A DNA stretch of 64,000 nucleotides from Planctomycetota bacterium. Lineage in GTDB: Bacteria; Planctomycetota; UBA8108; UBA1146. The DNA is taken from positions 8,376 through 72,375 of the forward strand of contig JAQBGV010000096.1 in the NCBI GenBank assembly GCA_032128395.1. Direction: 5' to 3'. Numbering within the stretch: position 1 is the first letter of the stretch; every line of letters begins with the position of its first letter. This document shows, piece by piece, positions 4,005 through 56,707 of this stretch. Both the position numbers and the translations under genes were made by a program. The notes under the pieces are model-generated. The model was not told the origin of the DNA. It did no database searches and saw nothing but the letters and a program-made list of their open reading frames with translations.

Positions 4005-4253
4005 TTATTCGGCGCGTTTCTCGAGCTCATCCAGTCGGCGCTCCAGGAACTCGATCTCTTCCCGGAGACCAGCATTCCGCCGCATCGACAGCACGATGAA
4101 GATCACCACCAAGCCGAAGACGATGCCGTAGGCGAGGGTCACCTTGCCTCGATAGTCCACCGGGGCTTCCGGCTCACCGGGGCCTTGCGCGATCGCGAGC
4201 GCCGGCGCGCACACGATGACCACCCCGAGGAGGAGCGGGAGGAATCGTCTCAT
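4005..4253 (-). CDS. small membrane protein, CcmD-like (heme exporter protein D candidate)
   Basis: 82 aa, N-terminal hydrophobic segment plus one TM (GIVFGLVVIFIVL); start codon overlaps ccmC stop (ATGA); position after ccmC as in ccmABCD operons. Assignment by position, not sequence identity. Confidence 0.45.
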   Translation of the reverse strand: MRRFLPLLLGVVIVCAPALAIAQGPGEPEAPVDYRGKVTLAYGIVFGLVVIFIVLSMRRNAGLREEIEFLERRLDELEKRAE

Positions 4254-4978
4254 GCCGAGTCTCCTTCCTCGATCCCCCGCACCCGCGCGAGGACCGTGTC
4301 GAGCCGCTCCTTCGAATCTTGGCGGGCGAGCCGCCAGCGGTAGAGGAGCAGGTAGAGGGTGAAGAACGCCAGAACCCCGAACCAACGGGTCTGAGAGATG
4401 CTCGGGTCGGAGCCGAGGTCGTCGAAGGTCTCGGGGTGCGAGCTCTTTCCGAACCACTCGACCGCGTAGTGGACCAGCGGGATGTTGATGTACGCAAGGA
4501 TGCCGAAGATCGCGGCAAATCGACGGCGCTTCAGCGAGTCCTCGACCTGATTCTGCAGAAGAACGTATCCCGCGTAGGTCAGCCACATGATGGCAGCGGA
4601 CATCAGACGCGCGTCACTCCAGTCCCACCAGGTGTTCCACGCAGCAGAGGCCCAGGTCGAGCCGGTCGCCACGGTCACACTGCAGGTGAGAAGTCCGACC
4701 TCCCCCGCGGCACGCGCGCGACGGTCCCAGGCGGGGCTCCCCGTCCGCAGCACCGCGATGCTCGCGACCAGAACTATTGTGAAGAAGACCAGACAGGAGA
4801 GCGCGGCGGGGAAGTGGTAGTAGAAGATCAGGTAGCTCTGCTCGATCTTGCGGATCGAGAACGGAACGTAGTTCGCGATCATGTAGTTGAGCGCCGAGAC
4901 CATCACCAGCGCTGCGGCCGCATGGATCAGAAAGCTCGGATGCACCCTTGGCGAACGCACTTCCGACACCGCGACCAC
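4250..4978 (-). CDS. ccmC: heme exporter protein CcmC
   Basis: Tryptophan-rich WWD motif region (WNTWWDWSD), multi-TM, 242 aa. Confidence 0.85.
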   Translation of the reverse strand: MVAVSEVRSPRVHPSFLIHAAAALVMVSALNYMIANYVPFSIRKIEQSYLIFYYHFPAALSCLVFFTIVLVASIAVLRTGSPAWDRRARAAGEVGLLTCSVTVATGSTWASAAWNTWWDWSDARLMSAAIMWLTYAGYVLLQNQVEDSLKRRRFAAIFGILAYINIPLVHYAVEWFGKSSHPETFDDLGSDPSISQTRWFGVLAFFTLYLLLYRWRLARQDSKERLDTVLARVRGIEEGDSA

Positions 4979-5662
4979 CTATCCGTCGAAATCCGCGACG
5001 ACCAACTGGAACAGGATCTGCCCGGCCGCGATGTAGACCAGGTCGAATGCGGCGATCATCGCGATCTCTCGGGAACCGATCTCGAATCCGCGGAGCGCCT
5101 GGGTCGTCAGGCTGACCACCGCCTTGAAGAAGGGGATCAGGAGCGGCAGGAGAAGGAGCCGCAACAGCACGTCACCCCCCCGGATCGATCGGGTCATCGC
5201 CGCGAGGGTGACCCCCACCGCCACGAACCCGAGTGTCCCTACCCACGCTGCGAGGAGCACGATCGCCACCGTGGCCAGATCGGTGCGAACGTTGTAGAGC
5301 ACCAGGAACGCGACGAGCACCACCGTTTCCATCGCCGCGACGAAGATCCAGGTCGAGGCGAGGCGCGCGTAGTAGATCGTGGTTCGCCCGACCGGCGAGA
5401 GGAGAAGACCCTCGAGGACGCGCTCCTCTCCTTCGCGGCCAAAACTTCGCTCGATCCCGATCGTTCCCGCGAGGAGGAACACCGTCCACAAGATCCCCGG
5501 CTGCGCCTTGACCGCCGTCTCGGTGCTCGGATCGATCGCGAACGAGAGCACGAACAGGGTGACCAGCGCGAAGAGCACCATGCTGACGACAGTCTCGCCG
5601 CGACGCAGCTCGCGCACGCACTCCCAGCGTACGAGCGCCCCGAACGCGCGCAGGGCGTTCAC
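4979..5662 (-). CDS. ccmB: heme exporter protein CcmB (ABC permease)
   Basis: C-terminal ~228 aa of ORF 4979..6256 is a 6-TM CcmB-like permease; GTG start (VNALRAFGALVRWE...) overlapping ccmA stop; upstream part of the ORF is GC-frame read-through. Confidence 0.8.
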   Translation of the reverse strand: MNALRAFGALVRWECVRELRRGETVVSMVLFALVTLFVLSFAIDPSTETAVKAQPGILWTVFLLAGTIGIERSFGREGEERVLEGLLLSPVGRTTIYYARLASTWIFVAAMETVVLVAFLVLYNVRTDLATVAIVLLAAWVGTLGFVAVGVTLAAMTRSIRGGDVLLRLLLLPLLIPFFKAVVSLTTQALRGFEIGSREIAMIAAFDLVYIAAGQILFQLVVADFDG

Positions 5663-6351
5663 GACGCCCCCTCCTCGCCGGCCGCGGACCAGGTACCGCG
5701 AGCGGTGCGGCGGGAAACCGTGCCGCGGTCGAGCCAGGTGACGCTGTGGCAGAGACGCTCCGCTCGGCGCAGCTCGTGAGTGACGAGGAGCACCGTCCTC
5801 CCCTCGCGAACCCTCTCGTCGACCATCGATTCGACGAGCGCACACCCCTCGGGGTCGAGCCCGGTAAAGGGTTCGTCGAGGATCAGCAGCTCCGGATCTG
5901 GGAGCAATGCACAGACGAGGCTCGCTCGCTGGGCCATTCCCCGCGAGAAGGTGCGGAGCGGATCGCGACGCCGCCAGCTCAGCCCGACGCGCTCGAGGAG
6001 GGCATCTCTGCGAATGCTCGGGATCCCGCCGCCGTGGAGGTCCGCGACGTACGCGAGGGCGTCGGAGAGGGAGAGGTTGCGGGGGACGAGCGGTTGGTCG
6101 AGCAGAACTCCGAGGCGCGCGCGCACCTGCGCCCCCTCGGCCGGCACCTGGAACCCGCACACCTCGAGCTCGCCCTCGCTCGGCTGGAAGAGTCCGCACA
6201 CCAGCTTCAGGAAGGTGGTCTTCCCCGAACCGTTCGGCCCGAGGATCCCGTGGCAAGTCCCGGCGGCGACCTCGAGATCGAGATCGCGGAGCGCCTTGCG
6301 CTCGCCGTAGCGCTTCCCGAGTCCCTTCGCCACGATGACAGGATCGATCAC
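5659..6351 (-). CDS. ccmA: cytochrome c biogenesis ABC transporter ATP-binding protein CcmA
   Basis: Walker A GPNGSGKTT, ABC signature FSRGMAQR, Walker B LLILDEP; GTG start inside ORF 5659..7062. Confidence 0.82.
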   Translation of the reverse strand: MIDPVIVAKGLGKRYGERKALRDLDLEVAAGTCHGILGPNGSGKTTFLKLVCGLFQPSEGELEVCGFQVPAEGAQVRARLGVLLDQPLVPRNLSLSDALAYVADLHGGGIPSIRRDALLERVGLSWRRRDPLRTFSRGMAQRASLVCALLPDPELLILDEPFTGLDPEGCALVESMVDERVREGRTVLLVTHELRRAERLCHSVTWLDRGTVSRRTARGTWSAAGEEGAS

Positions 6352-6404
6352 CGGAGCACCGACCGCCGGCGACGGTGCCGTAGCCGGGTCTGCGGGAGAA
6401 GAAG

Positions 6405-7784
6405 TCAACGCTTCGTCCCGTTCAGCTCGGATCGGACGATGCGGGCGATCTCCTTCACCTGCAGCATCAAGGTCTGGGGCGACGCATCTGAATTCTCGAT
6501 GATCTCGTCGAGACGCTCGAGAATGGTCGAGCGATTCGCCCCAAGACGGGTGAGTTCTCGTTCGAGGTCGTCCTCCGTCAGCTCTCCTCGCTCGCGCAGT
6601 CCATGCAATTGCGCGACGCGCGCCTCTCGGCCGCTCGTCGATGCACGTTGCCGCGCGATCGCGATCCCTCCCCAGATCGGCAACGCGAATGCCGCCAGGA
6701 TGATGAGCGTCATCACGATCGTCTGTGAGGAGATCCCCGGCGGACCGAACCGGACCGGGACCCTCACCTTTCCGTGGGCGGGGATCCGCGGGCTCGAGAA
6801 CATGTTCACGGTCTTCTGGACGTCCGGCATTTCGCGGGTCCCTCCCGAAACCAGTGGGGGGACATCCCAAGCCGAGGCCGTGTCGGCATCGTGCGTGAAC
6901 ACTCCCTGCTCGATGGAGAGCTGCAACACCTGGGTATCGACGATCGCCTCGAGGCCGAGGTCGAAGAGCTCCCCTCGGACGACCTCCTGGTGGTAGATCC
7001 CCATCAGGAGGCCGTTCTCGACCGGGAAGACCGGCTGGGTCAACGGCACGCCGTACCCCCAATGAGAGACCTGGCGCGCCTCGAGCTCGAGAGCGGCCTC
7101 GGTGCCGATCATCAATTGGAGGACTACTGCGCCCTCGGGGACCGGGAAGAGGAAGCCGACTCCCGGCTCGTCCGGTGGCCCGGTGAACACTTCGAAGCCG
7201 CCGTTCTGGTACTGGACGATCTGTCGTACCTGAACCATCGCACTCTCCCCCTCGGAATCTTGCCCCGGGGCGAGGGTGACGATGCGGATCACCGCTTGCT
7301 GAAGAGTCGAGTGGTCATCGGTCACGCGGTAGAGGGGGAGCTGCCCCCCGGCGGGGGCCATCTGCTGCTCCTTCGCGAGGTATCGACGACCATCGACCGC
7401 GGTTGCGCTCACCTGGTACGGCGAGCCGAGCCGCCGCAGGCCGAGATCGAGGATCACCCGTCCCTCGGCATCGCTGCGGCCGCGAGTGATCGCTTCTTCT
7501 GCGTCGGGGGTGAAGCTCCGGACTTCGACCTCGGCGCCCGAGAGCAGGTGATCGAGGGCTCGTGGCTCCGCGCCGGCGCCGTGCTGTGGGCTCGACTCGA
7601 ACATCGCGGTACGGTCGATCAGCTGCAGCTCGAGCCGCACCGGGATCGGCTCGGTCGGTAGCGTCTCGGAAACCCGAGGCATCGGGGGACCTGCGTGGGG
7701 CGAAGGGGCTTGCCCCACGAGGGTCCCCCCGGCCAGAAGACCCACTGCGAGAAAAACGGCGCACCCCACCGCAAACCGGATCAT
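6405..7784 (-). CDS. hypothetical exported protein with C-terminal TM anchor and cytoplasmic coiled-coil tail, embedded in ccm cluster
   Basis: N-terminal signal-like hydrophobic segment, large soluble domain, TM helix (IVMTLIILAAFALPIWGGIAI) then charged helical tail; 4-bp overlap with upstream small ORF. Confidence 0.5.
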   Translation of the reverse strand: MIRFAVGCAVFLAVGLLAGGTLVGQAPSPHAGPPMPRVSETLPTEPIPVRLELQLIDRTAMFESSPQHGAGAEPRALDHLLSGAEVEVRSFTPDAEEAITRGRSDAEGRVILDLGLRRLGSPYQVSATAVDGRRYLAKEQQMAPAGGQLPLYRVTDDHSTLQQAVIRIVTLAPGQDSEGESAMVQVRQIVQYQNGGFEVFTGPPDEPGVGFLFPVPEGAVVLQLMIGTEAALELEARQVSHWGYGVPLTQPVFPVENGLLMGIYHQEVVRGELFDLGLEAIVDTQVLQLSIEQGVFTHDADTASAWDVPPLVSGGTREMPDVQKTVNMFSSPRIPAHGKVRVPVRFGPPGISSQTIVMTLIILAAFALPIWGGIAIARQRASTSGREARVAQLHGLRERGELTEDDLERELTRLGANRSTILERLDEIIENSDASPQTLMLQVKEIARIVRSELNGTKR

Positions 7785-8077
7785 CCCCGTTCCCCTTCCG
7801 TGCCGACCCCGAGCTCCTTCAAGCGGCGGTAGACCGCGGCGGTCTCGGCGAGGTAATCGCTCCGGAGCTCCTCATACTCGCTCGCGCCGATCGTTCCCGC
7901 CTCGTGCTCGTGCTCGAGGTCCTTGAGCGCGCGGAGCAACTTTCCCCGCTCCGCGATGAGCTGTTCCTCGACCGTCGACTCCTCGCGCGGAGCCCACGAG
8001 CGCTTCACCCCGAAGACCGGGGAGAGAATCCACCCCAGGATGGCGAGAGCGACCACGATGAAGAGCACGAGCCACAT
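7781..8077 (-). CDS. small single-TM membrane protein (98 aa), embedded in ccm cluster
   Basis: MWLVLFIVVALAILGWIL TM followed by charged helical region; ATGA overlap with downstream gene. Confidence 0.45.
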   Translation of the reverse strand: MWLVLFIVVALAILGWILSPVFGVKRSWAPREESTVEEQLIAERGKLLRALKDLEHEHEAGTIGASEYEELRSDYLAETAAVYRRLKELGVGTEGERG

Positions 8078-8103
8078 GGGAGTTTCCCAATCCGGAACCA
8101 GGT

Positions 8104-8697
8104 CTACTCGATGGAATCGAGATCACTCTCGATCCGAGCGATCTCCTCGGGGGCGAGGTCGGTCTGGAGGCGACGCCGTTCGCTGCGTGCTTCCGCCCCG
8201 GCCTTCTGCCAACCGAGTATGACGTACCCTGCGAACAGTCCACCGACGATGAGCGCGGCGACCGGGAGGATGTACAACCACTTGCCGGTGCCCGCCCAAC
8301 CGGGGTTCGATCGCACCTGCGACCCGTACTTCTGCTCCATGAAGGTGAGGATCGCCTCGTCGCTGCTCCCCGCCTGCACCATCTGCAGGATCTCCTGCTT
8401 CTGCGGGTCGGCGCAGCCGTCGAGGCAACTGGCGAGGGTCCGCGTCCAATTCTCATCGGGACACGCACACATCACCTGCTTCGAGATGCGCTTCACCGAC
8501 GTGTGCACCTCAGCGCTGCTCGGGACGAGAAGAGGCTCGGCGCGACCGCGCTCGCCGTGCCCGGTCGAATCGTCTCCTCGAGAAGTCCCCGTCGGCACAC
8601 CGGTCGAGTCCTGGGCCGAGAGGTCCGAGGGGAGGGCCACCGACAGGACGACCGCGAGTCCGGCGAGCATCGCTGTGCGCAAGAGCTCAGTCCGCAA
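8104..8697 (-). CDS. ccmH: cytochrome c-type biogenesis protein CcmH/CycL family (atypical Cys motif)
   Basis: Region EILQMVQAGSSDEAILTFMEQKYGSQVRSNP aligns gap-free with E. coli CcmH VYSMVAEGKSEVEIIGWMTERYGDFVRYNP; C-terminal TM present; redox Cys arranged C-A-C...C-LDG-C rather than LRCxxC. Confidence 0.7.
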   Translation of the reverse strand: MRTELLRTAMLAGLAVVLSVALPSDLSAQDSTGVPTGTSRGDDSTGHGERGRAEPLLVPSSAEVHTSVKRISKQVMCACPDENWTRTLASCLDGCADPQKQEILQMVQAGSSDEAILTFMEQKYGSQVRSNPGWAGTGKWLYILPVAALIVGGLFAGYVILGWQKAGAEARSERRRLQTDLAPEEIARIESDLDSIE

Positions 8698-10762
8698 GAC
8701 CGACTCGTTTCCGTCCGAGGGGGAGCGCGGCGAAGATCCCCCCGAGGATCATCATGATCCAACCCGCCCAGACGAGCATGATCAGTGGATTTCGGAAGAT
8801 GACCAGGTTGTAGCTCCCGTCCTCCCCCGAAGATTGGAAGAAGACGTAGAGGTCCTCCAGCATTCCGCGGTGGATCTCCACCTCGGTGACCATGGTGTTC
8901 TTCTTCGGGTAGTGGCGCTTCTCGGGGAACATTCGGAACGCGCCGCCGAACTCAGGTCGAACCCCGATCTCGAGGGTCTGCAGCCCGAACACCTTGCCGG
9001 ATTCAGCCTGGTCGAGGGTCTGTGCATTCTCCAGGCTGATCTCGTAGCTCCCCACCTGTACCTGGTCCCCCGTACGCATTTTGAATTCCCGCTCCACCCG
9101 GTACATCGACGAGCAGACGATCCCGGTGGTGATCACCGCGAGGCCGACATGCACGAAGTAGCCACCGTACCGCCGGTTGTTGCGCACGGTGATGGTGACG
9201 AGTGTCTCGAGCAATCCCTGGCCAGTGCGTCGACTCCGGTTCTGCACGGTGCGGAGAACCTCGTAGCCGAGGGAGATGGCGATCAGGGTCGCGGAGTAGA
9301 GAACGACGAAGGTCGGGTAGATCCGTTTCGCCCAGCTGAGATCCCCCGTCTCCCCCGCCCGGATCAGTTCGGCACCCCACTGGATCGTCGCCGCGATCGG
9401 GACCGACACGAGGGCCGGGAGCAACAGGTTCCGCAGGAGCACCCGGGGGCTGGTCCGTATCCACCCGAGAGCGGGCCCCACCGCCGAGATCAGGAGCATG
9501 AGCACGAAGAACGGGACCGTCACCTGGTTGTAGGTCGGGGGTCCGACCGAAATCGCCTGGCCGAAGAACTCGTGGGAGATCTTCGGCCAGAGGGTCAGGA
9601 TCAGGATCGAGGAAGCGATCGCGAGCAGAACGAAGTTGTTGATCACGAACAGCGCTTCGCGCGACCAGAGCGTCTCGATCCGGTGCGGCGAGCGCATCGA
9701 GGGCTGCCGTAGCGTGATCAGGAACAGACACACCGCGATGCAGGTCAGCAGGAACCCGAGGAACCAGTCCCCCACCGGTCCGCTGCCGAACGCGTGCACC
9801 GAGTTGACGATGCCACTGCGGGTCAGGTACGTCCCGAAAATGCTCAGGACGAACACCAGCGTCGCGAGGAATGCGTTCCACGAGCGCATCATCCCGCGGC
9901 GTTCCTGCACCATGATCGAGTGCAGGAGGGCGGTCGAGGCGAACCACGGGAGGAAGCTCGCGTTCTCGACCGGGTCCCACGCCCAATAGCCTCCCCACCC
10001 GAGGACGACGTAGGCCCAGAGCCCTCCGAGGATGACGCCGGTCGTGTTGAAGAGCCAACCGAGCATCGTCCAGCGGCGGATCTTGGTGATCCAGTAGTTC
10101 CCCTGCTCGCCGATGATCAACGCCGCGATCGCGAAGCAGAACGGGACGGTGTAGACCACCCAGCCGAAGTAGAGGCACGGCGGGTGGATCAACATCCAAT
10201 AGTTCACGAGGAGCGGGTTGAGGCCGGAGCCGTCCAGGATGGGGGCGCCGTTCGGGAAGTTCTGAGCGAGGAACGCGGCCGAGTGGAGCTCGAATGGGTT
10301 CGTCACGAAGGCGACGACGACCAGGAAGAAGAGTTGGATCGATCCGAAGACGAGATACACCCACGGCTCGAGGCGGCGCCCCTCGCGGTCCCCTTCATCT
10401 CGCCGAAAACCGTACGCGACGATCCCCCCCACGACCCCGATCAGCGCCGCCCAGAAGAGGATCGAGCCGTCGAGTCCTCCCCAGAGCCCCGCGATCTTGT
10501 AGGAGAGAGGGAGTCCGCGCTCGGAGTAGTCGTAGATGTAAGAGCGGTCGTAGGCCCCGTTTACGAAGCCCGCGACCAGGCCGATCGCCGCCCCGACGGT
10601 CGCCCCGCCGGTGGCGACCAGTGAACGTCGCGCGGCGAGAACGAGACGACGATCCTGGATCCAGTCGCCGAGCACGACCAGCAAGATCGTCAGGAGCCCG
10701 AGGCCAGCGCCGAGGATGACGAGGGCGCGGGAGAACTCCAGGTAGCCGAACTCATGGGGCAT
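8687..10762 (-). CDS. ccmF: cytochrome c-type biogenesis heme lyase subunit CcmF
   Basis: 691 aa polytopic membrane protein with WGGYWAWDPVENASFLPW tryptophan-rich (WWD) motif and conserved His; overlaps ccmH start. Confidence 0.9.
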   Translation of the reverse strand: MPHEFGYLEFSRALVILGAGLGLLTILLVVLGDWIQDRRLVLAARRSLVATGGATVGAAIGLVAGFVNGAYDRSYIYDYSERGLPLSYKIAGLWGGLDGSILFWAALIGVVGGIVAYGFRRDEGDREGRRLEPWVYLVFGSIQLFFLVVVAFVTNPFELHSAAFLAQNFPNGAPILDGSGLNPLLVNYWMLIHPPCLYFGWVVYTVPFCFAIAALIIGEQGNYWITKIRRWTMLGWLFNTTGVILGGLWAYVVLGWGGYWAWDPVENASFLPWFASTALLHSIMVQERRGMMRSWNAFLATLVFVLSIFGTYLTRSGIVNSVHAFGSGPVGDWFLGFLLTCIAVCLFLITLRQPSMRSPHRIETLWSREALFVINNFVLLAIASSILILTLWPKISHEFFGQAISVGPPTYNQVTVPFFVLMLLISAVGPALGWIRTSPRVLLRNLLLPALVSVPIAATIQWGAELIRAGETGDLSWAKRIYPTFVVLYSATLIAISLGYEVLRTVQNRSRRTGQGLLETLVTITVRNNRRYGGYFVHVGLAVITTGIVCSSMYRVEREFKMRTGDQVQVGSYEISLENAQTLDQAESGKVFGLQTLEIGVRPEFGGAFRMFPEKRHYPKKNTMVTEVEIHRGMLEDLYVFFQSSGEDGSYNLVIFRNPLIMLVWAGWIMMILGGIFAALPLGRKRVGLAD

Positions 10763-10789
10763 GGGACGTCCTGCGGTTCCGAGGGCCCC

Positions 10790-19325: not shown

Positions 19326-20789
<1,464 letters not shown>

Positions 20790-20815
20790 GTTGCACCCTT
20801 TCGGCCACACGCCGC

Positions 20816-23800
20816 TCAGTGATTGAACAAGAACGCCGGGCTGTTGATCAGGGCCCACGCGACATCCTGGACCCATGTCACGCGCCTGTTCTGCAGCTGC
20901 TCGTCGCTCAGACGCATCGCCCGCTCGAGACGCTTCAACTTCGGATCCTCGGGGAGCGGCTTCTCCACTCGGGCTAGCTTGCCGCGGAGTTGCACGAGCT
21001 TCGGATCGACGGGTCGCATCGCCCTCGCTGCCGTGACCCGCTCCCGCTGCTCCTGAAAACCCGGGTCATGGTCTGCAAAATAGGCGAGCAGCTCTCCCTG
21101 TTGCCCTTCGCTTCGCTGGCTTCTCGGCGTCTCCAGAATCGTCGTGACGTGGACGGGCAAGCCGAAATCGACGGGGGTGTTCGATGCCGTCGTGCAAATC
21201 CGGACCCTCCCGATGGTGTGTTCGGAACCGTAGTTGAAGTGCACCGTGAAAGCGAGATTCACGCCTGCCTCGGTGATCGGCTCCTTCAGCTCGAAGGTCG
21301 CGGTGCGGTCGACTCCAAGCTTCGGGGAGGAAGCCCAGCCAGCGTTGTCGACCTTGCCGTCGATCGCTGCCGCTACATCAAAGCCGTCTTGGCTGAAGTC
21401 GGCTCTCGCATTCTGCAAACCTACCTGCGTCGGAGTCGCGACACTGTCGCTCCTTGCAGCAGGAGTCGCCACGATTTCGAACTCGGTCAGCACGAAGTTG
21501 CCATTCCTTGCGCGGCCCGGCCCGCGCTCCGGCAATCGCGAATCCGCGAGCGCCTCGAGCCGGATCGCGGTCACCCCGGTCAGATCGGTCTTGGCCGTGA
21601 ACTGGTACGCGCTCTTGTCATCCTTGCCCGATGCGAAGACGGAGCCATCCTCCTCGATCGTCAGCGTGGCCCCGTTCGATGCGGTCGGGTTCTCCAGGGC
21701 GAGCAGCTTCCAACTCGTCGCCGCCGACCGGGCTTCCTCCCACTCGAGCAACTTCTCCGGCAGGATCTTGCCGTAGGCCTCTTCTTCGGCCACCGCCCGG
21801 GCGATCGCTCGTCGCTGTTGCTCGTCGAGCTCCGCTTCGCGTGGGGCGATCTCCTCCTCGTAGGCTGCGACCTCGATCTTCGCTCCCTCGATGTCAGCGC
21901 TCCGCAGGTCGGCGCGCCGCTCCGCGACCAGCACCGCCTCTTTCTGATAGGCTTCGAATTCCGATCTCAACGCCAAGTGGTCCTGTTCGAGTTCTTCGAG
22001 GATCCTCAGCAGCGAATCCACCTCCTCTTGTGTCGCGGGTCGATTCAGGATTCGCAGATACAAGTCCTCGATGAGCTTCGAATCGTCCGCCTGACTCTCG
22101 ACCAGCTTCGTGATCGCGTTCCCGGAATCACTGATCGCCTGGTCCACCGTCGGGCCGGTGACCAATGCCATCACACTGCCGAGGCCGAGCTCGTTCGATC
22201 GTTCGCACTCACAAGCGCTCTCCCGCGCGGGTCGGCCGAGCGTCGCCAAGAATCCATCCTGGAGTTCGATGCCGACGTCCGGAAGAGCCGAGGCCCGGAT
22301 CCCTTCCGGCACCCCGGGGATCTTCGACTTCGCCCCGAGCGCCAGATGGATCGAGTCGTACAACACTTCCGCCGGCAGCCGCCTGGGTAACGCATGAGCG
22401 TAATTGATTCGGTCGTCCTGGTTCCATTCGTTCGGCACGATCGAGAGCTGGTACGTGCGAGATCTGCAAATGGTCGCGATCAACCGACGCACGTCGAAGT
22501 CACCGCGTACGAAATCCGCCGTCAGCCAATCGAGCAGCTCTGGATTCGAAGGTGGATTTCCCGCGCGGATGTCATCGAGCGGATCGATCAAGCCGATCCC
22601 CAGCAGATAGCCCCAGACTCGATTGACGTAGCTGCGCGCGAAGTGCCGATTGCCAGGAGAGGTCAGCCACGCCGCCAGTTGCTGACGCTTCGATGGATCC
22701 TCCTGGGACTCGATGGCGGGTCCGGATTCGGAAAGGACTGCGTAGGGGAAGGCCGGCGCCGAGACCTCGCCGGTCCGCTCGTTCCGAACTTCGCCGGTCC
22801 GTGGATCGGAGACGATCTCATAGAGTGGCTTGCTCTCCTCGATCGCGCTGCCCCCGACGCGGTTCTTCCCGCTGCGAGGGTCGGCCTCGAGGTGGACGTC
22901 TGCGAAGAAGGCCGCCAGCTCGTAGTACTGGTCTTGGGTCCAGCGCTCGAAGGGATGGTCGTGACACTTATTGCAATTGAAGCGAGTGGCCAAGAAGAGC
23001 TGCGTGGTGTTTTCCATCGCCTCCGAAGGTGTTCGCAAGATCTTGAAATAGGACGCCGCGGGGTTGTCCTTGGTCGAACCGCTGGCCGTCAAGATTTCGT
23101 AGACCATTTGATCGTACGGCGTGTTCTCCTCGACTTGTTGACGGATCCACCGGCGGAAGCTCTCTGCGCCTTCGCTCCCGAGAAACTTGCCGTTGACCTG
23201 CAATAGGTCCGCCCAGCGATTGCCCCAGTGCACGACGAATCCTTCCGAACCGATCAGTGCATCGATCACTTCATCGCGCTTTGCTCTCGGGTCTCGATCA
23301 TCCGCGACGAACGCGATGACTCTCTCTGGGGTCGGCGGGAGCCCGGTCAGATCCAGAGTGACACGTCGCAAGAACTCGGCGTCGGTCGAGAGTTCGGATG
23401 GCAACATCTTCATGCGCTGCCACTTCGCGGCCACGAGTTCGTCGATCTGGTTGTGTATCGGCTGTGCTTGCCAGCTGAAGCCGGATCGGTCCCCCATCAC
23501 CGTGAGAGTGGTCGCGGAATAGGCCCCCTCGAATCGCGCCATCAGGGGGGCTTCGCCCCGCCTCAGGGTCGTGATCAAACCGGACGCGGAACACGTCGCA
23601 ATCTCCGTGTCTCCGCTCGTGACGAACGCCTCCGCGGTGACATCGCGCGACGAGCCGTCGTTGTAGCTCGCCGTCACTCGCAGTTGCTGCTCTCCGCCGA
23701 TCTCCTCTACGACCGGGTTGATCGGGGTCAACTCGATCCGGGTGACGCGCGGCGCCGCGCGATCCAGCGCACAACCTGCGGCGATCCAGTCTCGCAAGAT

Positions 23801-25876
23801 CTGGTAGTAGCCAGAGCCGAATTTCAATCGCATGCCACCCTCGTGCGGAACGCTGCCGGTCGCTTTCAGCAGCATCAAGCTGTCATCGGCGGCGGCAAAG
23901 TTGACGCGGCGTCCCGCGTGGTCGTCCGCGAACGCTCGCACGTCGAAGATCGGGTCGTAGCCGCGCAGGGACAACTTGAAGCCGTTCTTGCCTTGCTTCG
24001 AACCATGACAAGAACCGCCGTTGCACCCCAGTTTCGAAATGACGGGGCCAACGTCGCGGATGAAACTCGGTTCGAAGTCGGCATTTCGACCGGTGACCGT
24101 CACCGGGAGCTCGACGACCTGCCCGCCGTGGGAAATCTCGAGCCGAGCTTCTCCATCGGCGAGTGGCCGCACCATGCCGGCGGTGACCGCGACGATCTCA
24201 GCTGAGAGCTCGTAGGTGGCTCGTCGGGTCAGATCGACCGAATCACCGGAAGCCAACCAACCGGTCACGATCAGTTGTTGGGAGCCGTACTTCTCCACGA
24301 ACTCGATCGACGGGGGATCGACGGTGATCGCCACGAGATCACCCGCCCGGTCGCTCTGCACCGGGGCCGACATCAACACTCGCTTCAAGGATGCGTTCTC
24401 CGCATCCAGGATTCGGACCAGGCCGTCGGCACCTGCGACCGCGAGTTCCCGCTGATTCGGATGCCAGCAGAGCGAATAGATCGGCGTGTTGAAGGAGGCG
24501 GACGCGATGCGCTCGATGTCCCTTCGACGGAACTCCTCCAGCTTCTGTCGCTCCTCGTCACTCCACGAGGTCGACACCTTCTCGAGGATCTCCTTCATCC
24601 CCTTCGGTAGTGTGCCGTCGAAGTCACTGGCGTAGATGTGGACGTGACCACGGCCATCGAGGCTGCTTCCTGCGGCGATCCGCTTTCCGTCGGCGCGGTA
24701 GCCGAGGTCGAAGATGCGCCCGGGCATGGCGGGGAACGAGCGGAGCAGATTCGAGTTGTCGCCGATCACCCGCTTGACTTCGCGATGCACGCGGTAGATC
24801 TGGGGCGTCCCATCGGCGCCCCCGACCAGAACTTCTTCTTGGCTCGGGTGCCGAGCCACCGCAGCGAGTCCGCCCTTGAGCGCGCCCGGCGTGATCGAGG
24901 TGATGTTGTCGATGAACCGTTGGGTCTTCACTTCGGTCAACTTCGCAGCCATATCGCGGCCGACGGAGATCACGTACGAACCGTCCGTCGAGAAAACTGT
25001 ATCCAGCGTCCAGTCGGACGAGGCACCGCTGAAGAGCACCTGCTCGCCACTCTTGGCGTCGATCGCCCGCAGAGTATTGTCACCACAGCCGAAGGCGATC
25101 CGCTGGCCGTCCGGAGACCAGCAGGCTCCGTAGACCGTATCGAAGGTGACCGGCACGGAGAGCTCGAGATTCCAGCTCCTGGTATCCCAGACCTGTACCT
25201 CCCCCATTCGGGCCGGCAACCCACCGGTCACGGCGAGCTTCGTGCCGTCCGGTGAAAAGCGAATCGACTCGATTCGAGCGGAGAGCCCCACCAGTCGGGC
25301 GACCAAGGTCGATCGCTCGACGTCGTGGATCAGAACTTCGTGATAACCGGAGACGGCGAGCAGGAGCCCATCGGCGGAGTAGTCGAGCGCGGTCACGATC
25401 GGCGGAGAGTCGTACTTCGGCGGATGTGCGAGGTCGTACTGCGGCTGAGCGTTGGCCGGCGTATCGTCGATGGCTCCCGCCGCGATCCACCGACGGACAA
25501 GGTCGATCTCGGCTCGCTTCAGCGGACTTCCCTTGTCCGGCATCTCTGCCTCGCCATCGATCGGCGTGATCAGCTCGACGAGCAGACTGGAATCCGGGGC
25601 GCCCGGCACGATCGCGGGTTCACCACCGTCGCCCCCCGCGAGAAGCCGGGCGAACTGCGTCATCACGAAGCGCCCCTTCGACTTCGCAGGTTGATGGCAG
25701 CCGTGACAGTTCGCCTGGAAGATCGGCCGGATGTCTTGGTAGTAGCTGACCAGGGGGGGCTCGGCGGGCTCCGTAGATTCGTCGCTCGCGGTCACCCGGG
25801 CGGCGGACAACAGTACGAGACAGGAGGGAAGCCACAACGATGCAGCGAGCCACTGCCGAGTCATATCTTCGTCCAT
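20816..25876 (-). CDS. giant PSD1-family protein (PSCyt1/PSCyt2 + DUF1549 + DUF1553) with WD40-like and Big-2 domains
   Basis: 1686 aa; N-terminal signal; CHGCH (PSCyt1) and CNGGSCHG (PSCyt2) motifs; WD40-like repeats; Ig-like BIG2 region; C-terminal DUF1553-like region with coiled coil. Confidence 0.8.
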
Positions 25877-26036
25877 CGGTCAGAGAGTCTTGAGGGATCG
25901 AGCGCGTGCAAGATCGTAGCAGGATCGGCGGTTCTGCGTTAGTACGAGGTCCTGCTGCGCAGGCGACTTCGCCCGGGCTGGGGGGCAGCTCGCGGGGGAA
26001 GCGGCGACACTGAACACTCCGAATCCAGCCCTCTCC

Positions 26037-29775: not shown

Positions 29776-32664
29776 TCAAGGTGAGGGCAGCACCTCGAAC
29801 CGGAGCTTGCGCGGCAGCGAGATCGTCGCGAGGCGCTCGGTGTCTTGATAGAGCCCGGTGACGAGTTGGACGGTCAGCACGTACTCTCCCGGCTCGAGGC
29901 CCTCCGCGACGGTGAAAGTCAGCCGCCCGTCGAACGTCCCCCGGTAGGCGCGGACGGGACCGCCGAGGTAGCGCTCCTCGGCTCCGTCGGAGGAATCCAG
30001 CGAGCCGCTCGGGCGGAGAACGGTCACCGACTTCCCCGCTTCCTCGATCGAGAGACCCGTAAGGCGGATCTGACTGTGGAACGCGGGACGATCGGTCAGC
30101 CCGGTCTCGAGGAACTCGATGAACTTCCGCTTCGAATTGGTGAACGCTTCACGCGCCACTTCGAGGTGACTCTCACTGTCGAGCACGATGTAGGTCGGGT
30201 TCGCGTTGTAGCCGGTCAGTTCCCGTTGGAGCTCGGTGTAGTCCGCCTCGAGCGGATCGTCGGTGTAGATCTCGAACAATTCGAACTGCCGCAAGAGCGC
30301 TTCGGCTTCCGGGTCTCTGAGGATCCCGCCGGGACCCTCCATCTGTTTGCAGTTCTGTCAGACGTGACCGGTGAAGTTGATGAAAATCGGTCTTCGCTCT
30401 CCCCCCGCCGCGATCCGCTCGCGGATCGTCTCCAGCTCCGCCGCGAAGGGGACCGGGTTCTCGTAGCTGAGCACTCGCCACTCGAGGCTGGACTCGTCCG
30501 CGTAGAACGACTTCACGAGGAGCTGCGATTCGAGGTTCTTGTTCAGGTGCCCCCCGGCCACCGCCCAGAGGCAGAATCCGGCCGAGACCACGCAGAGGAG
30601 GACCAGGACCACCCGGGGAGCGCCGATCCGCTGCAGCGGTGAGTCGTGGGGGAAGCGGATCTTGCCGAGGAGGTAGAGCCCCATCGCGAGCAGGAGCACC
30701 CCCCAGATCGCGAAGATCACCTCTCGCGAGATCACGGAGTCGAGGCGCCACCGCCCGATCGTCGCACTGAAGAACTTCCAGGCCGCGATGAGCTCGACGA
30801 AACCGAGGACCCCCTTCACGGTGCTGAGCCACCCTCCCGAGCGCGGCAGCCCCGCGAGCGCTTTCGGGAAGAGCGCGAGGCAGAAGAACGGCAGGGCGAA
30901 GGTCGCCGAGAAGGCGAGCATTCCGATCGCGGCGTACCCAGGTCCGGAACCAGCGGCGAGAGCGAGGAGGGCTGCTGCGATCGGACCGACGCAAGTGAAC
31001 GTCGCCACGCTGAAGACGAACCCCATCACGAGGACACTCGCCACGCCGTTCCCGCCCCCGCCCCCTGCGGCACGATTGCGCAACCAACTCGGGAGCTGGA
31101 TGTCGTAGTAGCCGAAGAGGCTGAACGCGAAGTAGACGAAGAGAGCGCCGATCCCGAGGTTCACCCAGGCGTTCGTCGCCATGAAGTTCGCGCCCTGCTC
31201 GCCGAGGATCGCGCTCAGGACGAGTCCGAGGGTTGTGAAACTCGTCATCACGCCGACGCAGAAGAGGAGCGCGAGCCCGATCACGCGCGAACGCTTCTGG
31301 TGCGCCTGCTTGGTGAAGACACTGATCGTGATCGGGATCATCGGGTAGACGCACGGGGTGAGGAGCGCGATCAGGGCGCCGCCGACGCTCAGAGCGACGA
31401 TCCCCCAGAATCCCGCCTCTTTCGACCAGTCCTTCTGGATCGCCGGGATCCGTCTCCCCGTTTCGAGGACTTCGCCCCGAAACGCCACCGTGAGGGTCTC
31501 TCCCGAACGCACCTGTGTCCGATCGAGGCTCGCGGTGAAGCGCACCGGACCCGTCGGCTCGTCGGAGCCGGTCGACCCGCCGTTCTGGGGCACACCCCCC
31601 GCCACCTCCATCCCGACGAGGACTGGAACCACGATCTCGGAGACCGCGGGCAGCTCGCACCCACCCGCGTCGCACGCCTGCGTGCGCACTTTCACGCCGA
31701 CCCGGTAGCTCCCGACCGGAACGGTATCCGGGGCGCGGAATCGCAATCGGAAGGTCGCGGTGCCGACATGCTCGGGCACGTTCTTGCCGTCGACGACGAC
31801 GATCTTCGGCGCGCTCTCGAGCACTCCTTCGATCGCTTCGAACGGGCCCGCGTCCGCGACATCCACCTGGACCGGGAGACCGTTGTCGCCGCGATAGTCG
31901 AGGCCGTAGAGGTGGAAACCGCGCTCGATCTTCGCTGTGATCTCGACGGTGAACTCCGCGCCCGGTTCCACCGCGTCGGCTCCACGTGCGGTCAGAGCCA
32001 CCGTCGGGGAAGCGAGTTTCTCGACGACGAGAGAAGTTCCCACCGCACCGGGGCCCGCCTCAGCTCCGCCCCCCGCGGCCGGTCGTTCTTCCCCCACCCA
32101 CACCGGCAGCGTGAAGGAGAGGATTTCGGTCGGAAGACACTGGTTCGCATCGCAGACCATGTAGGTGAACTCGACGGTGGCCGCGTAGCGACCGGGAGCG
32201 AGATCGGCGGGTGCCTCGAGCGGGAGACGAAAGGGGACCTTCCCCTCGTGCTCCAGCATCACCCCGCCCATCACATCGTCGTAGTGGGACCTCGGCTTCG
32301 GCTCGATCGCAACCCCCGCAGCGCGGAAGGGTCCGAGTTGGGTCGCGACGTACGCCGTCGGCGTGCCGAGGTCTTCGAGGAGCTGCATCCCGTAGATGTG
32401 CCAACCACGATCGATCACGGCCTCGACGACGAGTTCGAAGCGGCTCCCGGGAGCAACCCCATCGATCCCCTTCGCGTGCAGCAACACCGGCGCGTCATCG
32501 GCCGCCCGGGCCTCCTGATCGAAGGGGGGAGGGGAAGAGTCGTCGGCGGGGGCGGGGGAGAGTCCCGCGAGGAGCCCCCCGAGGACCAAGAGGGTCGAGA
32601 AGAGCCTCGAGGTCTGGGGTGCGTGGATAACGGTGGGGGTCACGAAGCCTCCGTCGGGGATCAT
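29776..32664 (-). CDS. dsbD: thiol:disulfide interchange protein DsbD (2x alpha-like, beta TM, gamma Trx-like), predicted selenoprotein with in-frame UGA at 30358-30360
   Basis: ORFs 30358..32664 and 29776..30342 are in the same frame, separated only by TGA. Beta domain has conserved LTPCVYPM and FTCVGP cysteines; two N-terminal domains each carry a C-x4-C pair. Read-through gives PIFINFTGHV-U-QNCKQME..., aligning with E. coli DsbD-gamma [18 protein letters not shown]... Confidence 0.7.
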
Positions 32665-53205: not shown

Positions 53206-54339
53206 TCAGCGGTACATCGCCTCGATGGGAGCCCTATCGGCGCGGAATCGCCCCCATTCCCCCTCCGCGATCGCCTGCCGGGCGCGTTCGAGGAAGCGGT
53301 GGAAGACCCGGAGGTTGTGAATCGTCCCGAGGGTGGTGCCGAGCATCTCTTTTCGCCGGTAGAGGTGGTGGAGAAAACCGCGGGAGAATCCCGTACAGGC
53401 GAGGCAATCGCACCCTTCCTCGATCGGGGAGGGGTCCGAAGCGTGGGCCCGATTGCGGATCCGCAGCGGCCCCCCCGTCAGCCGGAAGAGGGATCCTCCG
53501 CGGGCATTCCGGGTCGGGACCACGCAATCGAAAATGTCGATTCCACACTCGACGGCGACCCGGAACTCCTCGAACCCACCCACCCCCATCAGGTAGCGCG
53601 GCCGGTCGACCGGGAGCCCCTCCGCCCCCCAGGGGATCGTTCGGAGCATCGTCTCGCGAGCCTCGCCGACGCTCACCCCACCCACCGCGTACCCATCGAA
53701 GGGGAGCTCTCGGAGTCGCTCGACCGCCTCCCGCCGCAGCGCCTCGAAGGTCCCCCCTTGGACGATGCCGAAGACTGCCATCGGTCGCGCCGGCTCGATG
53801 CGGGCCCGATGTTCGACGCTCCGGATCGCCCATGACATCGTGCGTTCGAGGGCGACTCGGGCCTCTGACTCGTCGCCGGTCGGCGCGGCGCAGTGGTCGA
53901 GCACCATCGCGATGTCAGGGTTCAGCGCCGCCTCGATGTCGAGAACACGTTCCGGAGTGAGCCGGATCTGGGCGCCGTCGACATGCGAACGGAAAGTGAC
54001 TCCGTCATCATCGATGTCCCGCAATTCCGCGAGGGAGAAGACCTGGAACCCGCCAGAGTCGGTGAGGATCGGACGATTCCAACCCATGAAGGAGTGGAGC
54101 CCTCCGAGGGCGTGCACCGTCTCGGGGCCGGGGCGCACGGCGAGGTGGTAGGCGTTCGCGAGGACGATCTGCGCGCCGCACGCGATCAGTTGATCGGGAG
54201 TGAGACCCTTCACCGTCCCCCGCGTGCCCACCGGGAGGAACGCAGGAGTCTCGACCGTTCCGTGGGGAGTCGTGAGCCGACCACGACGCGGTCCCGCGGG
54301 ATCTGCACCGACCACCTCGAACGCGAACCCGCTCGTCAT
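53206..54339 (-). CDS. tgt: queuine tRNA-ribosyltransferase
   Basis: 377 aa; LTDSGGFQ, GIVQGG, zinc site CDCLAC...H; only the 3' 1134 nt of ORF 53206..55638 is genuine. Confidence 0.9.
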   Translation of the reverse strand: MTSGFAFEVVGADPAGPRRGRLTTPHGTVETPAFLPVGTRGTVKGLTPDQLIACGAQIVLANAYHLAVRPGPETVHALGGLHSFMGWNRPILTDSGGFQVFSLAELRDIDDDGVTFRSHVDGAQIRLTPERVLDIEAALNPDIAMVLDHCAAPTGDESEARVALERTMSWAIRSVEHRARIEPARPMAVFGIVQGGTFEALRREAVERLRELPFDGYAVGGVSVGEARETMLRTIPWGAEGLPVDRPRYLMGVGGFEEFRVAVECGIDIFDCVVPTRNARGGSLFRLTGGPLRIRNRAHASDPSPIEEGCDCLACTGFSRGFLHHLYRRKEMLGTTLGTIHNLRVFHRFLERARQAIAEGEWGRFRADRAPIEAMYR

Positions 54340-54380
54340 CGGGGCCACCGCGCGGATCGGGTTCAAGGCCCCCGCGTCGG

Positions 54381-55601
54381 CTAGGGCCACAGCGTCGAGA
54401 TCTCCGAGCCGGGGTAGTACCTCGCGAGGATCGATCGATATCGGGCCTGCTGCTCCGCGTAGCCCTTGGCGCCGACCTGGCAGAGCCCGACCCCGTGTCC
54501 CCACCCCCGGCCGAAGAACGCGAACTCGTCCCCCTTGCGCTCGGCGAAGAACGAAGTCGAACGGAGGGTGATCCCCGCCGTGCTGCAGGCCCGGCGGAAC
54601 CGGTCCGCGTCGACCTCGAAGCTGCCGCGCTCGTGGACGACCCGAACGAACGCGCAGTGTCCCCCCGGGGACGGATCGACCGGCTCGAGGGCGAGGAGCT
54701 CGCCGAGGACGATGCGATGGCGTCGACAGATCGATCCGAGTGCTTCTCGGAGCTTCGCCTCCGCGAGTCGCGCGTCCCACCTGAAGTACTTGCTCGAGGA
54801 ACATCCGCCGCACGAGACCGATGAGAGCGGGGCGATCGGGTCGCCGCCGAACCAGTCCTCGACCCCGCGCGTCGCTCCGCCGCAGGTCGAGTGATAGAAG
54901 CTCTCGAAGACCTTGCCCTCGTAGAGAAGCACCTGGCCGTGGGTCTGGTCGACCGCCTCGACCACCCGAGGATGAGGCGCGCCCCCGCCGAGGTAGACCT
55001 GCGAGCGATCGTCCGAGTGGACGTGGATTCGAGTGTCGGATGGGCGGGTCAGGATGTGGAAGAGCGCGTACGTGCGGGCGGCGACCGCCTGGGCCCCGAG
55101 CGCGTGCCGAGGATAGGAGTCGGCGGGCATCTCCCCCGGAACGACCCCGAGCAGATACCGCTCGAGCGGAAGTCGATTCACCAGTCTCCAGGGGCTCCCT
55201 TCCTCGGGGACGAGGACCTCGAGCCACCCTTCGTAGAATCCATCCCCGACCCGGGTCGAATGGACCTCCGCGCGGAACCGGAACGGGATCGCCAGTCCGA
55301 AGTCGAGTCCTCCGATGGTCGCGCCCCTCTCCGAGAGCTCGAGACGGTGGGTCCCTCCCGGGAGCTCTTTCCGCCCCCCCGGCCACTCGATGCGGAGCCC
55401 TCCTTGGCCGACCACGATCTCGCGCAGCAGCTCGGAACCCGATGCGATCTGCACTCCGATGATCGGACCGTCGTTCGCGTCGAGGGGTTGCAGTGCGCCG
55501 AGCACCGCGATGAGCGTGATCGCCCCCCTGAATCGGGTCGAGATCCGGCGGATCGACATCGGGCGGATCGAGATTCCGCGGACGCTCCGACTCATCCGCA
55601 C
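54381..55601 (-). CDS. SpoIID/LytB domain-containing protein
   Basis: GRGWGHGVGLCQVGA and YHSTCGG motifs of the SpoIID/LytB domain; signal/TM at N-terminus; start uncertain. Confidence 0.72.
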   Translation of the reverse strand: MRMSRSVRGISIRPMSIRRISTRFRGAITLIAVLGALQPLDANDGPIIGVQIASGSELLREIVVGQGGLRIEWPGGRKELPGGTHRLELSERGATIGGLDFGLAIPFRFRAEVHSTRVGDGFYEGWLEVLVPEEGSPWRLVNRLPLERYLLGVVPGEMPADSYPRHALGAQAVAARTYALFHILTRPSDTRIHVHSDDRSQVYLGGGAPHPRVVEAVDQTHGQVLLYEGKVFESFYHSTCGGATRGVEDWFGGDPIAPLSSVSCGGCSSSKYFRWDARLAEAKLREALGSICRRHRIVLGELLALEPVDPSPGGHCAFVRVVHERGSFEVDADRFRRACSTAGITLRSTSFFAERKGDEFAFFGRGWGHGVGLCQVGAKGYAEQQARYRSILARYYPGSEISTLWP

Positions 55602-56707
55602 GCTCCTTCTCCGAAGAGATCCGGGGTTTCGGCAGCATTTCCCGCTCGAGAAATGGGGCTTGCCGGCGCTGCGTTGGTCGGCGCTGCGTTGGTCGGCGCT
55701 GGGATCTCGAGACCGGGGATCTCCTCCGCCCGCGGACCGAGGACTCGACCCCTCGGGGTCTTCGCGAGGTACCCCTGGCGGATCAAGTACGGCTCGTAGA
55801 CGTCCTCGATCGTCCGCTCTTCTTCGCCGACGGTGACGGAGATCGTCTTGACCCCTACCGGCTCCCCGCGCGATCGGCTGATCACTTCGAGGATCCGGCG
55901 GTCGAGCGCGTCGAGGCCGAGGGAGTCGACTCCGAGTCGACTGAGCGCGGACTCCGCCGCGGCACCATCGATCTTCGGTGAACCACCGACCTCGGCAAAG
56001 TCTCTCACGCGGCGGAGAAAACGGTTGGCAATCCGGGGAGTCCCGCGGCTGCGGCAGGCGAGCGTGCGCGCCCCTTCCTCCGTCACCTCGACCCCGAGGA
56101 TCCCGGCACTGCGGGAGATGATCTGCAGCATCTCTTCGTCCCCGTACGGCTCGAGCTTCTCCTGGATCCCGAAGCGGGCGCGGAAGGGAGCGGTCAGGTT
56201 TCCCTCGCGAGTGGTGGCGGCGACGAGGGTGAAGCGCGGGAGGTCGATCTGGATCGATCGGGCGTTCGGCCCCTGATCGATCAGAATGTCGATGCGAAAG
56301 TCCTCCATCGCAGAATAGAGGTACTCCTCGACCACGCGACCGAGCCGATGCACTTCGTCGATGAAGAGCACATCCCCGACCTCGAGCTCGGTCAGGATCC
56401 CGACCAGGTCCTTCGCCTTCTCGAGCACCGGTCCACTCGTCGCTCGGAATCCGGTCCCCATCTCCGCCGAGACGAGATGGGCGAGCGTCGTCTTGCCGAG
56501 ACCCGGCATCCCGGAGAAGAGCAGATGGTCGAGGGGCTCGCCGCGGCGCCGCGCAGCGTCGATGTAGACGCGGAGATTCTCTGTGATTGCCGACTGGCCG
56601 ATGAACTCGTCGAGACGTCTAGGGCGGATCGAGGCCTCGCGGTCCCGCTCTTCGCCCCCGACGGCTCGGGGATCCGCGGGGCGGGCGTCGGGGGCGGTCT
56701 GGGTCAA
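55592..56707 (-). CDS. ruvB: Holliday junction branch migration DNA helicase RuvB, with repetitive C-terminal extension
   Basis: Walker A GMPGLGKTTLA, Walker B LFIDEVHRL, RuvB winged-helix C-domain; extra ~45 aa tail with APTNAAPTNAAP encoded by tandem 15-bp repeat. Confidence 0.9.
   Translation of the reverse strand: MTQTAPDARPADPRAVGGEERDREASIRPRRLDEFIGQSAITENLRVYIDAARRRGEPLDHLLFSGMPGLGKTTLAHLVSAEMGTGFRATSGPVLEKAKDLVGILTELEVGDVLFIDEVHRLGRVVEEYLYSAMEDFRIDILIDQGPNARSIQIDLPRFTLVAATTREGNLTAPFRARFGIQEKLEPYGDEEMLQIISRSAGILGVEVTEEGARTLACRSRGTPRIANRFLRRVRDFAEVGGSPKIDGAAAESALSRLGVDSLGLDALDRRILEVISRSRGEPVGVKTISVTVGEEERTIEDVYEPYLIRQGYLAKTPRGRVLGPRAEEIPGLEIPAPTNAAPTNAAPASPISRAGNAAETPDLFGEGACG

Follow-up and report, generated by a model that had tools for sequence, protein, structure and literature searches.

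A DsbD-family reductase gene of Planctomycetota with an in-frame UGA, probably encoding selenocysteine, at the first cysteine position of the gamma-domain CxxC motif

Does the TGA that separates two adjacent open reading frames (ORFs) in a planctomycete contig end a gene, or does it encode selenocysteine (Sec) within a longer one? The window considered here is the whole stretch of 64,000 nucleotides analysed from Planctomycetota bacterium (assembly GCA_032128395.1, contig JAQBGV010000096.1, positions 8,376 to 72,375), and the gene in question lies on its minus strand. An original prediction, made from the letters of this DNA, held that the gene encodes a DsbD with Sec at the first position of the gamma-domain CxxC. 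We consider this likely, ie that the UGA at codon 769 (UGA769) probably inserts Sec in a transmembrane protein-disulfide reductase of the DsbD family, and the claim draws its support from the clade-wide presence of TGA at this codon, from selection on the codons that follow it and from a stem-loop specific to the Sec forms. At the level of sequence, all the features on which bacterial selenoproteins are usually called are found; the sequence also shows a single frame, the order of domains and the correspondence between U and Cys.

The longer of the two ORFs (30358..32664, 768 residues) has the C-terminus ...RRPIFINFTGHV, and is followed immediately by the TGA at 30358-30360. Past it the minus-strand frame continues QNCKQMEGPGGILRDPE... 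(QNCKQMEGPGG...) for 193 codons, to a stop at 29776-29778. The single TGA is all that separates the longer ORF from the shorter one listed at 29776..30342, and the two are therefore one frame, as had been proposed; translation of the minus strand bears this out. The recoded coding sequence (CDS) would have 962 residues, or 963 codons counting the terminal TGA stop. The G+C content at third codon positions (GC3) is 0.83 in both halves, which is a coding-type composition. All six frames of the window were scanned for a TGA with at least 60 stop-free codons on each side and coding-type GC3, and the TGA at 30358-30360 was the sole site returned from the 64 kb (GC3 in the flanks 0.90 upstream and 0.81 downstream). 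TGA is also the terminator of 13 of the 21 Pfam-supported genes and the commonest true stop in the window. Because it serves as an ordinary stop and is found in frame only once in 64 kb, UGA is not reassigned throughout the genome, and that explanation was ruled out. The protein of the window is called identically on contigs of an NCBI metagenome-assembled genome (MAG), GCA_032124895.1, and of a Logan assembly.

Homologs were then compared at the codon itself. A search with the read-through protein gave 28 cluster representatives, at 40-62% identity, from Planctomycetota MAGs and metagenomes, and every one of them terminates at ...F[IL]NFTGH[VTN] (27 by automated check and P0008 by eye). The C-terminal part as query gave 25 proteins, each a 'hypothetical' ORF of 167-192 residues that starts at the Met of ...NC[KR]xME. 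These are the downstream halves of UGA-split homologs, and no full-length protein of the Cys type was present among the 25 matches. A hidden Markov model (HMM) search of 1.84 billion representatives at E<1e-30 likewise found only orphan ORFs, bar one unrelated repeat protein of 4,320 residues. The codon at the site was TGA in all 18 Sec-type loci (15 distinct) and TAA or TAG in none, and a metagenome scan added at least two more loci of the Sec type. In about 98 homologous loci of the Cys type, mostly from Bacteroidota, the aligned codon is TGC or TGT and specifies the first Cys of CxxC. The motif common to both types is F-x-D/N-F-T-G-x-x-[U/C]-x-N-C-[RK]-x-M-E. The claim that TGA occupies the first Cys position is borne out by these TGC/TGT loci and the 15 distinct TGA loci, and the alignment to Cys-type DsbD homologs that had been suggested as a check pairs the UGA with that same Cys.

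TGA is found at the same codon in two other DsbD lineages. One (L133, 4717-4719) is a classical single-alpha DsbD reading ...LDFTAHW-U-KGCKAFE, and the other (L173/P0032, 3763-3765) reads ...FIDFTGYS-U-VLCRRVE. The exchange of Cys and Sec at the gamma position has therefore happened more than once.

The region after the TGA has the marks of translated sequence. Over the 193 downstream codons the ratio of nonsynonymous to synonymous substitution rates (dN/dS) is 0.18-0.55, indicating purifying selection, and an alignment of 24 downstream halves averages 60% identity per column. Synonymous variation is seen in the codons directly after the TGA (x-N-C-R/K), with Asn as AAC or AAT and Arg or Lys encoded by seven different codons; the codon for Cys772 is TGC in ten and TGT in five of the 15 Sec-type loci, and this variation is synonymous only. 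The Met that would start the downstream ORF is replaced by ATC or TTC in 4 of the 15 loci, and it is equally kept in Cys-type proteins made from a single ORF. On both grounds this Met is a structural residue and does not mark a restart, and renewed initiation at the downstream AUG was ruled out.

Two alternatives can be weighed against these observations. The first is that the codon is read by a near-cognate or suppressor tRNA (for Trp, Cys or Gly), or that the TGA arose through an error of sequencing or assembly or as the lesion of a pseudogene. TGA is a single nucleotide away from TGC or TGT, and the sequence is MAG-derived, which would suit an artefact. However, unrelated samples yielded 15 distinct orthologous loci with the identical TGA, which two assemblies of the organism also share, the frame beyond it is under purifying selection, the commonest true stop of the window occurs in frame only here, and the Cys-type homologs are without the hairpin described below. 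Explanations of this kind are very improbable.

The second alternative is genuine termination, giving an alpha-beta-only protein like CcdA or ScsB, with the 188-residue ORF translated separately from an AUG 16 nt later or left untranslated. This is how gene callers and the NCBI annotation pipeline (PGAP) present the locus, as 'cytochrome c biogenesis protein CcdA' plus 'hypothetical protein'. In 11 of the 15 loci an ATG does stand five codons beyond the TGA, DsbD-family proteins that have no gamma domain (CcdA) are functional, and no Sec machinery turned up in the window or its orthologous flanks. A separate downstream product, on the other hand, would be without beta-strand 1, the first redox residue and a signal peptide, and so would be an incomplete thioredoxin fold in the cytoplasm. 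Nor would termination account for the conservation, with synonymous variation, of the x-N-C-R/K codons between TGA and ATG, for the ATC or TTC in place of the ATG in four loci and the Met-Glu kept in single-ORF proteins of the Cys type, for a stop that is TGA in every case and coincides precisely with the Cys codon, or for a hairpin after the stop that is specific to the Sec forms. A split gene is quite unlikely.

The GC-rich hairpin that had been noticed just after the UGA is present as described (Table 1). A spacer of 18 nt separates it from the UGA, and its loop begins at 27 nt from that codon. The copy in the window has two codons more than its relatives, CCC and GGG, and these stand on either side of the loop and are paired. 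Predictors of the bSECISearch type look for a small apical loop containing G at 16-37 nt from the UGA, and the window stem-loop, with GGC at 27 nt, fits that geometry. The original prediction was to be given up if orthologs had no conserved stem-loop, and this was looked at by contrasting Sec with Cys forms. Of the 15 distinct Sec-type loci, 11 have a stable stem-loop, with 21-27 nt between the UGA and the loop. The loops are GGC, GGU, GCAU, GAAU or GUU, and often stand above a lower stem that starts 5-9 nt after the UGA. The mean folding z-score against shuffles was -1.82 for Sec forms and -0.12 for Cys forms (p 2.7e-6); against synonymous recoding the values were -1.68 and -0.16, respectively (p 7.5e-6). 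RNAalifold gave a core of five pairs with compensatory change in three of them. Double-change cells numbered 11, compared to 3.8 in shuffles, none of 500 shuffles reached 11, and the covariation score was about twice that of any slid register. The separate lineage L173 has a strong hairpin of its own (GGAGAAG-GAGAU-CUUCUCC, z -2.47).

Several observations weigh against the insertion of Sec, and most concern this element. Taken by itself the window hairpin is unexceptional, at z -0.65 to -1.4 versus dinucleotide shuffles and z -0.36 versus synonymous recodings, because the Gly and Pro codons of a GC-rich gene pair easily. The case for the hairpin rests on the family and not on the copy in the window. 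Within the wider set, L133 and L007 are without a convincing hairpin, the covariation evidence is moderate because the register of the stem varies between subclades, and the p-values are optimistic because the sequences are phylogenetically related. No Rfam family for the Sec insertion sequence (SECIS) matched, either at the gathering threshold over the window or with permissive settings over 30260-30400. In addition, no selA, selB, selD or tRNA-Sec is present within the 64-kb window or approximately 150 kb of flanking sequence from orthologous loci; Pfam assigned no SelA, SelB or SelD to any of about 45 ORFs of the window, and ARAGORN, run on the window and on 18 orthologous loci, detected no tRNA-Sec, nor is a tRNA of any other kind encoded in the window or the flanks. 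Complete Sec machinery and several selenoproteins have been described in some Planctomycetes (PMC4807772), which makes the trait plausible in the phylum, and the organism itself presumably has the machinery too.

What kind of protein the frame would encode can be read from its domains, whose positions are collected in Table 1. That the upstream ORF is a DsbD with two C-x4-C alpha-like domains and a beta domain was confirmed by Pfam and by the positions of the Cys residues. PF11412 (DsbD_N) matches in two stretches with an E-value of 6e-10, and PF02683 (DsbD_TM) matches residues 420-631 with an E-value of 5e-26, C438 lying in LTPCVYPM and C558 in FTCVGP. The number of hydrophobic segments in the membrane domain, as judged by hydropathy, is even (about eight), in keeping with a gamma domain on the same side of the membrane as alpha. 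Positions 170-517 of the NCBIfam DsbD profile, NF001419, align to residues 420-799, ie from the membrane domain through the TGA site, at a score of 117.5 bits. As this is below the curated cut-off of 330, the protein belongs to a distant DsbD subfamily and is not of the E. coli type.

The downstream ORF had been taken for the missing gamma thioredoxin-like domain, and the best phmmer match among solved structures, PDB 3F9U (E 1e-8, residues 756-857), agrees with that. 3F9U is the C-terminal thioredoxin-fold domain of a Bacteroides fragilis 'exported cytochrome c biogenesis-related protein'. Its sequence HNKPVMLDFTGYGCVNCRKME aligns with ERRPIFINFTGHV[U]QNCKQME, where U pairs with the first Cys of GCVNC. 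A residue-for-residue alignment with the gamma domain of E. coli DsbD had also been claimed. Using hhalign and the E. coli cDsbD sequence, U does stand opposite the first Cys of CVAC (C461), but the alignment is a modest one (E 8.8e-5, 40 columns) and the stronger wording does not hold. The Pfam models Thioredoxin_7 and Thioredoxin_2 match the gamma domain weakly, and PF13098 reaches 14.4-16.9 bits against a cut-off of 27.

The AlphaFold2 (AF2) model of the 188-residue downstream ORF has a confidence (pLDDT) of 77 and contains strands only from about residue 90 onwards. This C-terminal beta domain of approximately 100 residues has no Cys and is present in all 24 orphan ORFs. It has no match in Pfam, and Foldseek gave no significant match, with a weak likeness to the N-terminal (Ig-like) domains of DsbD. 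Neisseria nDsbD was considered as a fold relative and is not relied on (TM-score 0.37, E>1).

Table 1. Features of the DsbD-like gene, in coordinates of the 64,000-nucleotide window.
Feature	Coordinates	Strand	Basis
Complete recoded CDS, DsbD-like, with internal UGA predicted to be read through	29776..32664	-	Single frame; same structure in orthologs
N-terminal signal/anchor region, residues 1-41, hydrophobic LFSTLLVLGGLLAGLSPAP	32542..32664	-	Hydropathy scan; inference
Alpha-like domain 1, residues ~58-190, Cys171-x4-Cys176	32095..32493	-	Pfam DsbD_N best stretch, residues 72-180
Alpha-like domain 2, residues ~215-350, Cys331-x4-Cys336, approximate boundaries	31615..32022	-	Second DsbD_N stretch
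Beta transmembrane (TM) domain, residues ~417-705, ~8 hydrophobic segments, Cys438 (TM1), Cys558 (TM4)	30550..31416	-	Pfam, NCBIfam, hydropathy
Gamma thioredoxin-like domain, residues ~736-862, holding U769-Q-N-C772	30079..30459	-	phmmer to 3F9U, AF2 secondary structure
In-frame UGA, codon 769, predicted Sec, first position of gamma UxxC (U-Q-N-C)	30358..30360	-	Alignments
Codon for Cys772, resolving Cys of UxxC	30349..30351	-	Invariant Cys in 15/15 Sec-type loci
SECIS-like hairpin, 9-bp stem GAGGGUCCC/GGGAUCCUC, GGC loop	30319..30339	-	Folding; dG ~-15 kcal/mol
Extra C-terminal all-beta domain, residues ~864-962, clade-specific	29779..30075	-	AF2 model

The alpha-like domains differ in number among the orthologs. 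Seven of these (P0002, P0003, P0007, P0022, P0023, P0026 and P0028; loci L163, L165 and L168-L171) have from about two to five alpha-like repeats, most of which retain C-x4-C, and the length before the UGA ranges from 748 to 1155 residues. The repeats therefore expand and contract inside one clade. A Phycisphaerales-type locus, L007, has a second TGA (at about 4954-4959) only 63 codons past the Sec codon (...NPFYVILELP); the thioredoxin domain is thereby left incomplete, with no continuation in another frame. The gene may be truncated, the assembly may be wrong here, or a second codon may be recoded. Dozens of proteins of 80-97 residues (P0158-P0248), starting 'ME[KSAE][NG][IL]F...', resemble DsbD-like thioredoxin domains only in the part after CxxC. 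They were considered as further fragments of the Sec type and set aside as uninformative, because the case that was checked, L172, begins 9 nt from the edge of its contig and is a contig-edge fragment.

The insertion of Sec, the path of electrons and the substrates are what we infer from these features, by the following scheme. At UGA769 the ribosome would meet a codon for which a stem-loop, placed in the mRNA some 18 nt further on, brings in SelB with Sec-tRNA(Sec); Sec would be inserted and translation would run on for 193 codons. By analogy with E. coli DsbD, cytoplasmic thioredoxin would reduce the Cys438/Cys558 pair in the membrane, and that pair would in turn reduce the selenenylsulfide of U769-x-x-C772 in the gamma domain. 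The gamma selenolate would then attack the C-x4-C disulfide of an alpha-like domain, from which electrons may pass to substrates in the envelope, for example the thioredoxins for cytochrome c maturation encoded by the nearby ccm system.

An elaboration of this scheme is that the gene has two outputs, the full alpha-beta-gamma protein when selenium is present and a truncated, CcdA-like alpha-beta protein when selenium is limiting. Sec decoding in bacteria competes with termination by release factor 2 (RF2), the truncated product would keep the whole of the alpha and beta domains with all four Cys, and neither the C-terminal-part search nor the HMM search found a Cys-type backup ortholog in the clade. 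Reduction of alpha by beta without gamma is, however, purely hypothetical in this family, and the truncated products of other selenoprotein genes are usually taken as by-products. Dual output has a slim chance of being correct, and the single product containing Sec is the reading kept below.

The surroundings of the gene had been brought into the argument as well. The ccm genes said to lie in the window are there, CcmC, CcmB, CcmH and CcmF at 4250-10789 (-), and in the ortholog at L163 a CcmE gene lies about 4 kb from the DsbD gene, a proximity that gives modest support to a link between this DsbD and cytochrome c maturation. A canonical thioredoxin gene at 3542-3898 (+) adjoins the ccmC, ccmB, ccmH, ccmF cluster, and no CcmG/TlpA-type thioredoxin was recognised in the two unassigned ORFs of the cluster (6405-7871 and 7781-8122). 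Two genes cited as signs of Sec use, fdhD and one resembling ArsS, are also present, at 851-1891 (+, FdhD/NarQ family) and 60727-61773 (-, radical SAM plus DUF3641, ArsS/TIGR04167-like), but they lend little of the support that had been claimed. The formate dehydrogenase catalytic subunit (fdhA) is absent from the 64-kb window, so the partner enzyme of FdhD, possibly a selenoprotein, must lie elsewhere. The ArsS/TIGR04167-like family has Sec-containing members with a C-terminal GxxU; the window gene is a Cys form with the C-terminus ...HCFGCTAGAGSSCGGSLS (GSSCGG) that ends in TAG, and is therefore no evidence for the use of Sec.

Gene order around the DsbD gene is conserved across orthologs, the upstream side holding divergently oriented genes of the DAHP-synthase type and for a glycosyltransferase, and the downstream side a gene for a Rieske oxygenase. 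In three orthologous loci the DsbD gene is directly preceded, on its own strand, by a small glutaredoxin gene (L164 3523-3813, L166 3663-3974 and L167 3723-4004), which is absent from the window. Elsewhere in the window, 19326-25879 (-) encodes a protein of 1686 residues with PSCyt1, WD40, PSCyt2 and PSD1 domains which adjoins a DUF1501 protein, a pair that is typical of Planctomycetota and supports the phylum assignment. An ORF of 810 residues at 53206-55638 (-) has a queuine tRNA-ribosyltransferase (TGT) domain only at residues 450-802, and either has a long N-terminal extension or is over-extended.

How much of this is new can be stated narrowly. UxxC proteins of the thioredoxin fold are the commonest class of predicted bacterial selenoproteins. 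Among them, the 'thiol:disulfide interchange protein' family (UxxC, PF13098, representative WP_011366075.1) was first predicted in 2004 (PMC13188914, PMC9312934) and has been reported in Geobacter and Syntrophus (PMC1794560). It has been in published lists since 2004 and 2008 and occurs in marine metagenomes, and since those inventories include it, a Sec-containing domain of the DsbD-gamma type is not new. The literature that treats DsbD or CcdA together with selenocysteine or selenoproteins gave no Sec-type DsbD, and no NCBIfam selenoprotein model covers one. What appears to be undescribed is the Planctomycetota clade, with two to about five alpha repeats, the motif FTGHxUxNC, the C-terminal beta domain and no Cys-type orthologs found. 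To judge from the sequences, the clade is apparently fixed for Sec at the gamma nucleophile. A Sec-type DsbD overturns nothing in current understanding.

Its practical and biological consequences are easily named. In all the public records examined the gene is split into 'CcdA' and 'hypothetical protein', and a model built on F-x-N-F-T-G-H-x-U-x-N-C would repair the annotation of dozens of MAGs. If UGA769 is indeed read as Sec, a selenolate would act at the relay step of DsbD for which E. coli uses Cys461, a residue reported to have an unusually high pKa in cDsbD, and the Sec-type DsbD would be a natural experiment on the replacement of Cys by Sec in thiol-disulfide relays. A group of mostly marine, uncultured Planctomycetota would then need selenium to keep the redox balance of the envelope and to mature cytochrome c. 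A more far-reaching version would have a subfamily spread across the Planctomycetota with an obligate Sec nucleophile, a supply of reductant to the envelope, cytochrome c maturation included, that depends on selenium, a UGA that perhaps serves as a selenium-sensing switch, and a beta domain and extra alpha domains that perhaps adapt the relay to new substrates. As a whole that version is improbable.

Compared to E. coli DsbD (DipZ, NF001419), the predicted protein has the same plan, with an alpha domain carrying a Cys pair, a beta domain of about eight TM segments with Cys in TM1 and TM4, and a C-terminal thioredoxin-like gamma domain with an xxC motif in which U aligns to C461, the gamma nucleophile; ccm genes are in genomic proximity in both. 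It differs in the putative Sec that replaces the first Cys, in its two C-x4-C alpha-like domains (two to about five in orthologs), in a gamma motif that reads FTGHxUxNC[KR]xME where E. coli has YADWCVACK, and in the extra all-beta domain of about 100 residues at the C-terminus. With the 'thiol:disulfide interchange protein' selenoproteins it shares UxxC in a thioredoxin fold of the DsbD-gamma type (the DsbD-gamma model being cd02953), a status as predicted only, and many Cys homologs. That comparison is by description, the published lists giving the thioredoxin domain only, and PF13098 is matched weakly here (14-17 bits versus 27). The Cys-type DsbD-like proteins with FTGxxCxNC[RK]xME, from Bacteroidota and others and including 3F9U, have the gamma motif and the alpha-beta-gamma order in common with it; at no more than 32% identity, they have Cys, no hairpin after the codon and no C-terminal beta domain. 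TsoB, a selenoprotein resembling a fusion of rhodanese and DsbD (NF045694), aligns through its DsbD-type TM domain at 116.6 bits, far under the cut-off of 805 and over that domain only. It has UxxxxU with two Sec, whereas here there is no rhodanese domain and a single U is predicted, in a thioredoxin UxxC. Finally, CcdA, the name given by PGAP to the truncated ORF (eg MEC9476651.1), has the same DsbD_TM beta domain with two Cys, but CcdA is the beta domain alone, whereas the gene described here adds the alpha domains and, by predicted read-through of the UGA, a gamma domain.

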